Shown here: positions 1,630 through 1,998 of the stretch, piece by piece
Layout: the number at the start of each line of letters is the position of its first letter
Numbering within the stretch: position 1 is the stretch's first letter
NCBI GenBank assembly: GCA_024679065.1
Contig: JAGIQG010000016.1
Span: forward strand, 1,674,001 to 1,738,000
Direction: 5' to 3'
DNA: 64,000 nt
DNA from: Sphyrna mokarran
Lineage: Eukaryota
Program-made: the position numbers and the translations under genes
Notes under the pieces: generated by a model
What the model was told of the DNA's origin: nothing
Database searches by the model: none
Seen by the model: only the letters and a program-made list of their open reading frames with translations

Positions 1630-1998
1630 GCGTCCTTTCAACAGAAACTAACTGGACAATAAACCTGCCGGATTTAGTTACAGCACAGAATGGATTGTGT
1701 GCCCTGCTTCCATGTAACTACACTCTCTCAGAGACACTCAGCCCAATTCAGCTCCAAGCAGCTTGGTACAAGGATTATCAACAGTCCACTCAGGTGATGC
1801 TGTACCACAGCGACCAGAATTCCATACACCCGGATTACACAGCCCGATCTCAGCTCATCGGAAACTTATCCCAACTCCAGTGTTCTCTCCTTCTGAATAA
1901 CATCAGCAATGCGGATAATGGGACCTACCAGTTCATTATCAAACTCCTCGATCTGAACCAGACATACGAAAGCAAACCTCTCACCTTAATCACTTCAG
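1630..1998 (+). CDS. Gene A exon: Siglec-type V-set Ig domain
   Basis: ttctcag|G acceptor, G|gtaaac donor; NWTINLP..GLCALLPCNYT..AAWYK..ARSQLIGNLSQLQCSLLLNNI..DNGTYQFIIK shows the Siglec Cys pattern with no F-strand Cys. Confidence 0.92.

Follow-up and report, generated by a model that had tools for sequence, protein, structure and literature searches.

Siglecs carry the F-strand motif D-x-G-x-Y-x-F-R, the arginine of which holds the carboxylate of sialic acid. A first-pass annotation of 64,000 nucleotides of DNA from Sphyrna mokarran (contig JAGIQG010000016.1; hereafter the window) reported a Siglec-fold V-set domain lacking this arginine in an otherwise intact gene, and compared it with human SIGLEC12. 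The locus raises two questions, namely whether the missing Arg is genuine, and what becomes of a Siglec without it. Where a Siglec lacks the Arg, the usual explanation is recent damage or pathogen escape. The change of a single Arg to Ile is in itself ordinary; the new part is the most likely recurrent loss of Arg in one conserved lineage that carries sequons at the rim of the binding pocket.

The V-set exon and its isoleucine codon

The domain (D1) is encoded by a 369-nt exon at 1630–1998 of the plus strand, which is bounded by AG and GT and flanked by phase-1 introns. Its reading frame begins at 1632 (stops appear if translation is started from 1630), and the product of 122 residues matches the Pfam V-set (E 7e-11) and Ig_CD22 (E 1e-6) families. 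All hallmarks of a Siglec V domain were found: W8, C23 and C28 in GLCALLPC, C84 in CSL, and an F strand without Cys (F101), with C28 and C84 as the intra-sheet B–E pair of an N-terminal V-set domain. The F strand reads DNGTYQFIIK, and the position of the essential Arg is occupied by Ile102 (codon ATT, 1935–1937, plus strand).

The PDB sequence closest to D1 was domain 1 of sialoadhesin (phmmer E 9e-16), followed by MAG, Siglec-5 and CD33. In the sequence alignment, I102 fell opposite sialoadhesin R97 and the F-strand Arg of MAG (R118). The AlphaFold2 model of D1, built from 45 sequences, had a mean pLDDT of 90.5 and placed I102 within the strand 97–105. In its fold, the model was closest to sialoadhesin D1 (TM 0.86; structural alignment with Z 19.4 and an rmsd of 1.3 Å over 112 residues), and it also matched MAG D1. 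The offsets at the ends of the aligned ranges fit I102 as the equivalent of sialoadhesin 97, MAG 118, CD33 119 and Siglec-7 124; the pocket geometry and the side-chain directions of N109 and N7 were read from the alignment. The proposal of a Siglec fold without its Arg was thus confirmed by the hallmarks, the codon and the fold, with I102 at the Arg position against MAG, CD33 and Siglec-1 alike.

Functional Siglecs combine the F-strand Arg with aromatic residues on the A and G strands. The sialoadhesin positions W2, Y44 and N104 correspond to W8, Y49 and N109 of D1; unlike in sialoadhesin, R97 is replaced by Ile, and W106 by Thr, which creates a sequon. W8 is kept as the A-strand aromatic, and the G-strand aromatic is replaced by Gln110 or Thr111, depending on the register. 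As judged from its sequence, D1 is a Siglec by descent and architecture that does not have the Arg of a functional one. Because the requirement for Arg is established and the G-strand aromatic is missing too, canonical sialic-acid binding is very probably absent in this species.

The codon was then compared with independent sequence over 1480–2020, the region of the V exon. In a second sample carrying the same species label, one contig of 2,959 nt covered 1627–1998 with no differences. At its 3' end the contig runs on into the initial 30 nt of exon D2 (from 5765), and at its 5' end it has an in-frame, hydrophobic, signal-peptide-like sequence. Because both ends join other exons, the contig was taken as a spliced transcript; the ten exons in the window total 2,507 nt, which is compatible with its length. 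The signal exon of the contig is spliced directly to the V exon, and only 262 nt lie ahead of the match, which is too short for a second V exon such as the upstream Arg-bearing one that, according to the first-pass annotation, would overturn its proposal. A V-domain HMM applied to the six frames of the window matched 1630–1998 only.

A third sample gave six raw DNA reads, all 99% or more alike, with a depth of about two over the ATT codon. At this identity a 151-nt read has one mismatch at most and an Arg codon needs two, and therefore the reads exclude Arg. Sequence from a related organism showed 71 differences in 458 nt from the exon region. The listing gave 40 of its 66 difference rows, which end at or before 1810 and already include all five T>G changes; G at position 1936, and with it an Arg codon, is therefore excluded. 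The 34 exon differences between 1630 and 1810, read by hand, were 22 replacements and 12 silent changes, and since the replacements mirror the Mustelus protein, this organism was not counted as an independent lineage. The Ile codon is not a sequencing error. As argued earlier, two substitutions separate ATT from the nearest Arg codon, but only one of them need alter the amino acid (AGA to ATA, followed by a silent step).

Gene architecture, cytoplasmic tail and neighbourhood

The gene is otherwise intact, as had been proposed. Its ten exons in the window, all joined at canonical splice sites, form an uninterrupted frame of 834 residues that encodes the V domain, six further Ig domains, a transmembrane segment and an acidic tail with an ITIM and an ITIM-like motif, and the V exon is spliced in the contig; the signal-peptide exon is located upstream of the window. 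The features of the Siglec family are present, namely a type I membrane protein with a C2-type stalk, tyrosine motifs and descent from Arg-bearing Siglecs.

On the plus strand, D1 is followed by D2 (5765–6070; C2-set_2 in Pfam) and by the Ig domains D3 (8473–8727), D4 (11233–11490), D5 (15666–15950) and D6 (17306–17584), all four placed by Pfam together with the splice model. The splice model alone places the membrane-proximal D7 (19324–19617; no Pfam match), which is similar to the last domain of MAG; D7 of the sevengill orthologue aligns to MAG 387–480 (E 6e-9). It also gives the transmembrane exon (20374–20479), with a hydrophobic stretch free of charged residues, the first cytoplasmic exon (21122–21203) and the final coding exon (21586–21858), which contains the acidic run, both tyrosine motifs and the stop. 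C23 of D1 and the HPCP Cys of D2 are kept in 8/8 orthologues, and a disulfide between the two domains is predicted. The ectodomain has about 32 N-glycosylation sequons.

The ITIM pattern (I/L/V/S)xYxx(L/V/I) together with an uncharged transmembrane segment was found, with LHYACI (21760–21777, plus strand) as the ITIM and TQYAQI (21829–21846, plus strand) as the ITIM-like motif; both are invariant in all eight orthologues. Human Siglec-XII, according to the available text of PMC11343606, likewise combines a Siglec fold lacking the essential Arg with a retained ITIM and ITIM-like tail, and it still recruits SHP1/2. By analogy, the shark tail probably recruits SHP as well. Identity to Mustelus is 70% in D1, 69% in D2 and 71% in D4 (a range of 69–71%), 77–82% in D5–D7, and 84–94% in the transmembrane segment and tail. 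The long Glu-rich acidic stretch ahead of the ITIM (21586–21760) varies in length among the orthologues. Exon D3 is missing in both annotated Mustelus isoforms and is found in the catshark, sevengill, sawshark and ray proteins; the sawshark and ray also have annotated isoforms without whole Ig exons. This suggests either splicing that alters the length of the stalk or gaps in annotation.

MAG was the closest whole-protein PDB match of the sevengill orthologue (E 2e-69, over D1–D4 and the membrane-proximal domain), and, like MAG/Siglec-4, the shark gene is a neighbour of a CD22-type gene. The likeness to MAG, as judged by pairwise matches, is seen at the ends of the protein. The features of a MAG orthologue, namely five Ig domains and conserved R118/Y127 contacts, were not found: there are seven Ig domains, D1 is only about 25% identical, and the R118/Y127 contact set is not kept. 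From fish to mammals, MAG retains R118, Y65, N125, Y127 and T128 (available sections of PMC7226832). The inhibitory CD33-related Siglec-5, -10 and -11 and the shark paralogues named "Siglec-10/12/13-like" have in common with this gene a V domain on a C2 stalk, an uncharged transmembrane segment, a proximal ITIM, a distal ITIM-like motif and a related membrane-proximal domain; in several species, these paralogues come from contigs of the same length as the orthologues do. Sialoadhesin differs in its 17 Ig domains and is not known to carry an ITIM. A search of the ESM Atlas returned CD22-, CD33- and Siglec-10-like clusters only.

The CD22-type neighbour (31770–64000, minus strand) converges tail-to-tail on the Siglec gene, as is expected for a Siglec locus. 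Its Ig exons lie at about 63998–63810, 60942–60655, 59073–58807, 55680–55410, 52612–52343 and 49126–48851, its transmembrane segment near 47560 and its six tyrosine motifs near 45479, 43390, 43321, 38889, 31849 and 31777, all on the minus strand; its V exon falls beyond the window. The window is repeat-rich vertebrate DNA with six N runs and a low-complexity G/T tract at 2640–4370 that looks like poor sequence. The introns are full of tandem repeats (700–1470, 2020–2610, 4380–5680, 19970–20340, 52700–54700, 59270–60330 and elsewhere), as is typical of shark genomes, and fragments of LINE reverse transcriptase occur, for example, at 34088–34783 and 51287–52138.

Position 102 across sharks and rays

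Orthologues were found in Mustelus asterias (XP_078092342/3), the catsharks Scyliorhinus canicula (XP_038670753) and S. torazame (XP_072325002), the sevengill Heptranchias perlo (XP_067831460), the sawshark Pristiophorus japonicus (UniRef) and the devil rays Mobula hypostoma (XP_062912763) and M. birostris (XP_072122247). NCBI names them "MAG-like" or "Schwann cell myelin protein-like". Among the matches listed in the word-based searches, there was no orthologue from lamniform or carpet sharks, skates or chimaeras. In a tree of the V and D2 domains (32 Siglec rows, leaving out one protein without the matched motif), the orthologues of six species formed a clade with a support of 100/99, and the paralogues formed separate clades. 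This tree set Mobula weakly within the sharks (88/34, on a long branch), and its placement was resolved by the full-length tree of eight species, which was rooted on the rays and had all five inner branches starred. There, S. mokarran is sister to Mustelus, followed by the catsharks and then by the sevengill with the sawshark, which agrees with the accepted branching of sharks and rays.

Position 102 is Ile in S. mokarran and Mustelus, Arg in the two catsharks and the sevengill, Thr in the sawshark and Gln in the two Mobula species. The orthologue comparison recommended by the first-pass annotation thus recovered the same Ile in Mustelus and Arg, Thr or Gln elsewhere. Arg is kept in 3/8 species (two genera) after long divergence, and at least three changes are needed across the eight orthologues. 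Ile, Thr and Gln can each arise from an Arg codon by a single base change. The number of changes alone gives no direction; the named chondrichthyan paralogues, however, keep Arg in 16/17 V domains (a set that excludes two isoforms and the named proteins without a V domain), and therefore Arg is likely ancestral and the changes are likely losses. On this comparison of sequences, the essential Arg was most likely lost three separate times in this gene across sharks and rays. Arg is missing in four of six orthologues versus one of 17 paralogues (Fisher p 0.008, for rows that are not phylogenetically independent). Among 208 other distinct V domains of the Siglec type, mostly from unnamed proteins, some of which contribute more than one domain, 40 are without Arg and 32 without either Arg or Lys.

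Several shark Siglecs bear two to four tandem V-set domains, and in one protein with four of them, three have no Arg (Lys, Ser and Lys). A Siglec-like V domain of the whale shark (Rhincodon) has Tyr at the Arg position.

Arg-less Siglecs are described in primates, in the available text of PMC7379906 and PMC6288428, as SIGLEC12 (R122C), SIGLEC17 and great-ape SIGLEC5/14; the R122C change of human SIGLEC12 is recent and human-specific, and the gene has common null alleles. The analogy with SIGLEC12 is a partial one, since the shark Ile is common to two genera, other orthologues also lack Arg, and the architecture and tail are kept. Unlike the primate cases, which are recent and often polymorphic or pseudogenising, the shark gene is intact, the loss recurs in the sawshark and rays, and sequons along the rim of the pocket accompany it throughout the lineage. 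We found no description of this gene, or of Arg loss in elasmobranch Siglecs, in the open literature, to which our search was mostly confined, subscription journals lying largely outside it.

Pocket sequons and the fate of the binding site

Beyond the claims of the first-pass annotation, the analysis revealed the lineage-wide pattern of loss, the missing G-strand aromatic and a set of conserved sequons along the rim of the pocket. The sequon N109-Q110-T111 (1956–1964, plus strand) stands at Arg+7, the position of MAG N125 and Siglec-7 K131, and is present in 8/8 orthologues; only 5/208 of the other V domains have one at the same offset, and 12/208 within one residue of it. In the sialoadhesin/MAG register, its Thr occupies the G-strand aromatic position. 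A second sequon, N7-W8-T9 (1650–1658, plus strand), adjoins the A-strand aromatic, i.e., the position of sialoadhesin W2. It is found in 7/8 orthologues, having been lost in S. torazame, and in 0/208 of the other domains; the pairing of an A-strand with a G-strand sequon likewise occurs in 0/208 of them. MAG N125 is listed among the sialic acid contacts in the available text of PMC7226832, and the backbone of Siglec-7 Lys131 is described as binding the N5 amide, beside Trp132 and Tyr26, in that of PMC12140324.

Two further sequons of the plus strand, N29 after the B-strand Cys (1716–1724) and N78 in the D–E loop (1863–1871), occur in 8/8 orthologues and in 19/208 and 14/208 of the other domains, respectively. 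On average, a V domain has 6.3 sequons in the orthologues and 1.5 in the others. Twenty V positions are invariant in six orthologues: 14 framework positions, which are common in other Siglec V domains (29–100%), and six sequon residues.

The remaining pocket contacts are scattered. In the catshark orthologues Arg is kept, but Cys stands where the A-strand Trp should be and the G-strand aromatic is missing; the sawshark has Gln in place of the Trp. The sevengill alone keeps Trp, Arg and Tyr at Arg+8, together with the N109 sequon. The pocket is incomplete in every Arg-less orthologue. K47, which is Lys or Arg in 8/8 orthologues, was considered as a substitute for the Arg and rejected, because it lies two residues past the core Trp and is likely to face away from the pocket.

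These data are compatible with a stepwise account, to which we give an even chance: that the gene encodes an intact inhibitory Siglec whose canonical sugar pocket has been retired, is covered by its own N-glycans, and which recruits SHP. The lineage descends from Arg-bearing Siglecs, and the catshark and sevengill orthologues retain the Arg. The sequon at Arg+7 is lineage-wide, usually with a second one by the A-strand aromatic, and would carry a glycan there; that these sites are occupied and obstruct the pocket is as plausible as the opposite. An obstructed pocket would have made the Arg dispensable, and the three losses, along with the scattered loss of aromatic contacts, could have followed. 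The ITIM and ITIM-like tyrosines, given their conservation, would still recruit SHP-1/SHP-2. In the last and weakest step, the receptor might no longer act as a lectin and might instead respond when its glycan-coated ectodomain is bound or clustered, with host or microbial lectins, or co-clustering with activating receptors, as candidate triggers; a preference for this over a dedicated protein ligand is weak.

A stronger version holds that the pocket was shut by glycans before sharks and rays split, that the Arg then decayed independently in rays, sawsharks and the houndshark group, and that the surviving Arg of the catsharks and the sevengill is a non-binding relic. We put it forward tentatively, as somewhat improbable. 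Several observations count against the stepwise account: the sevengill keeps Trp, Arg and Tyr(+8) with the sequon, so that binding may tolerate the sequon; Arg persists in two genera; S. torazame has lost the N7 sequon; and a basic residue lies near the Arg position in each Arg-less orthologue.

Whichever version applies, the gene has stayed intact across sharks and rays both where Arg is kept and where it is lost. Such a natural series can show whether a Siglec stays useful in the long term without binding sialic acid, and whether the site is switched off by a glycan that the protein itself carries at the rim. The presence of Arg, as in the catsharks, need not imply binding. The available text of PMC11343606 treats the ligand of Siglec-XII, if any, as an open question. 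If the shark pocket is indeed shut by glycans, a lectin has been turned into a glycan-displaying inhibitory receptor.

The alternative that survives best, though we think it rather unlikely, is the idea of the first-pass annotation, extended to say that the V domain has switched to a specific protein or other non-sialic ligand, which it binds through another surface while glycans shield its unused faces. Some Siglecs do have sialic-acid-independent protein ligands. The fold, both Cys pairs and the tail are retained in 8/8 species, and retention of the V domain throughout shark and ray evolution suggests a continuing role. Against such a switch, no invariant surface residue outside the framework and sequons was found among the six orthologues, and D1 is among the fastest-changing domains. 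Both points have counterweights, which also bear against a retired pocket: with only 31–52% identity, a protein-binding face that co-evolves with its partner could lack invariant residues, and the fast change of D1 is explained by pathogen-driven selection no less than by relaxation, D2 and D4 being equally divergent.

It is less likely still that the losses were independent, SIGLEC12-like escapes from pathogens that mimic sialic acid, with the Arg-bearing orthologues as normal receptors and the sequons unrelated. Recurrent loss in primates, as reported in the available part of PMC7379906, offers a precedent; the sevengill retains W, R and Y(+8), as a normal receptor should, and with 40/208 sampled V domains lacking Arg, loss is common. 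The losses, however, cluster in one orthologous group and spare all but one of the 17 named paralogue domains. The catsharks kept the Arg but lost both aromatic contacts, and the Arg+7 sequon is present in every species.

We consider it very improbable that sialic acid or another anionic glycan is still bound through a shifted basic residue. K104 lies two residues further on the same strand, some basic residue is near the Arg position in each Arg-less orthologue (K104 here, K113 in Mustelus, R100 in the sawshark and R104 in the ray), and secondary basic sites have been proposed for Siglec-7 in the part of PMC12140324 available. No position is common to these residues, however, K104 being Gln in Mustelus; the G-strand aromatic is lost too, and D1 has only 4 Lys+Arg versus 9 Asp+Glu, whereas eight paralogues carry 11–16 Lys+Arg.

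Finally, an assembly error, a pseudogene or a missed upstream Arg-bearing V exon might be suspected, because the window is draft sequence containing N runs and long repeats and does not reach the signal-peptide exon. These readings are refuted, to the point of having practically no probability left, by the identical spliced contig and concordant reads, by the Mustelus orthologue, which likewise has Ile and only one V domain, and by the frame open across ten exons.

A minor feature of the two catsharks concerns the edge of the pocket. Both have a further Cys at position 112 of the G strand, and it is possible that it pairs with the Cys at the A-strand Trp position in an A–G disulfide across the pocket edge.
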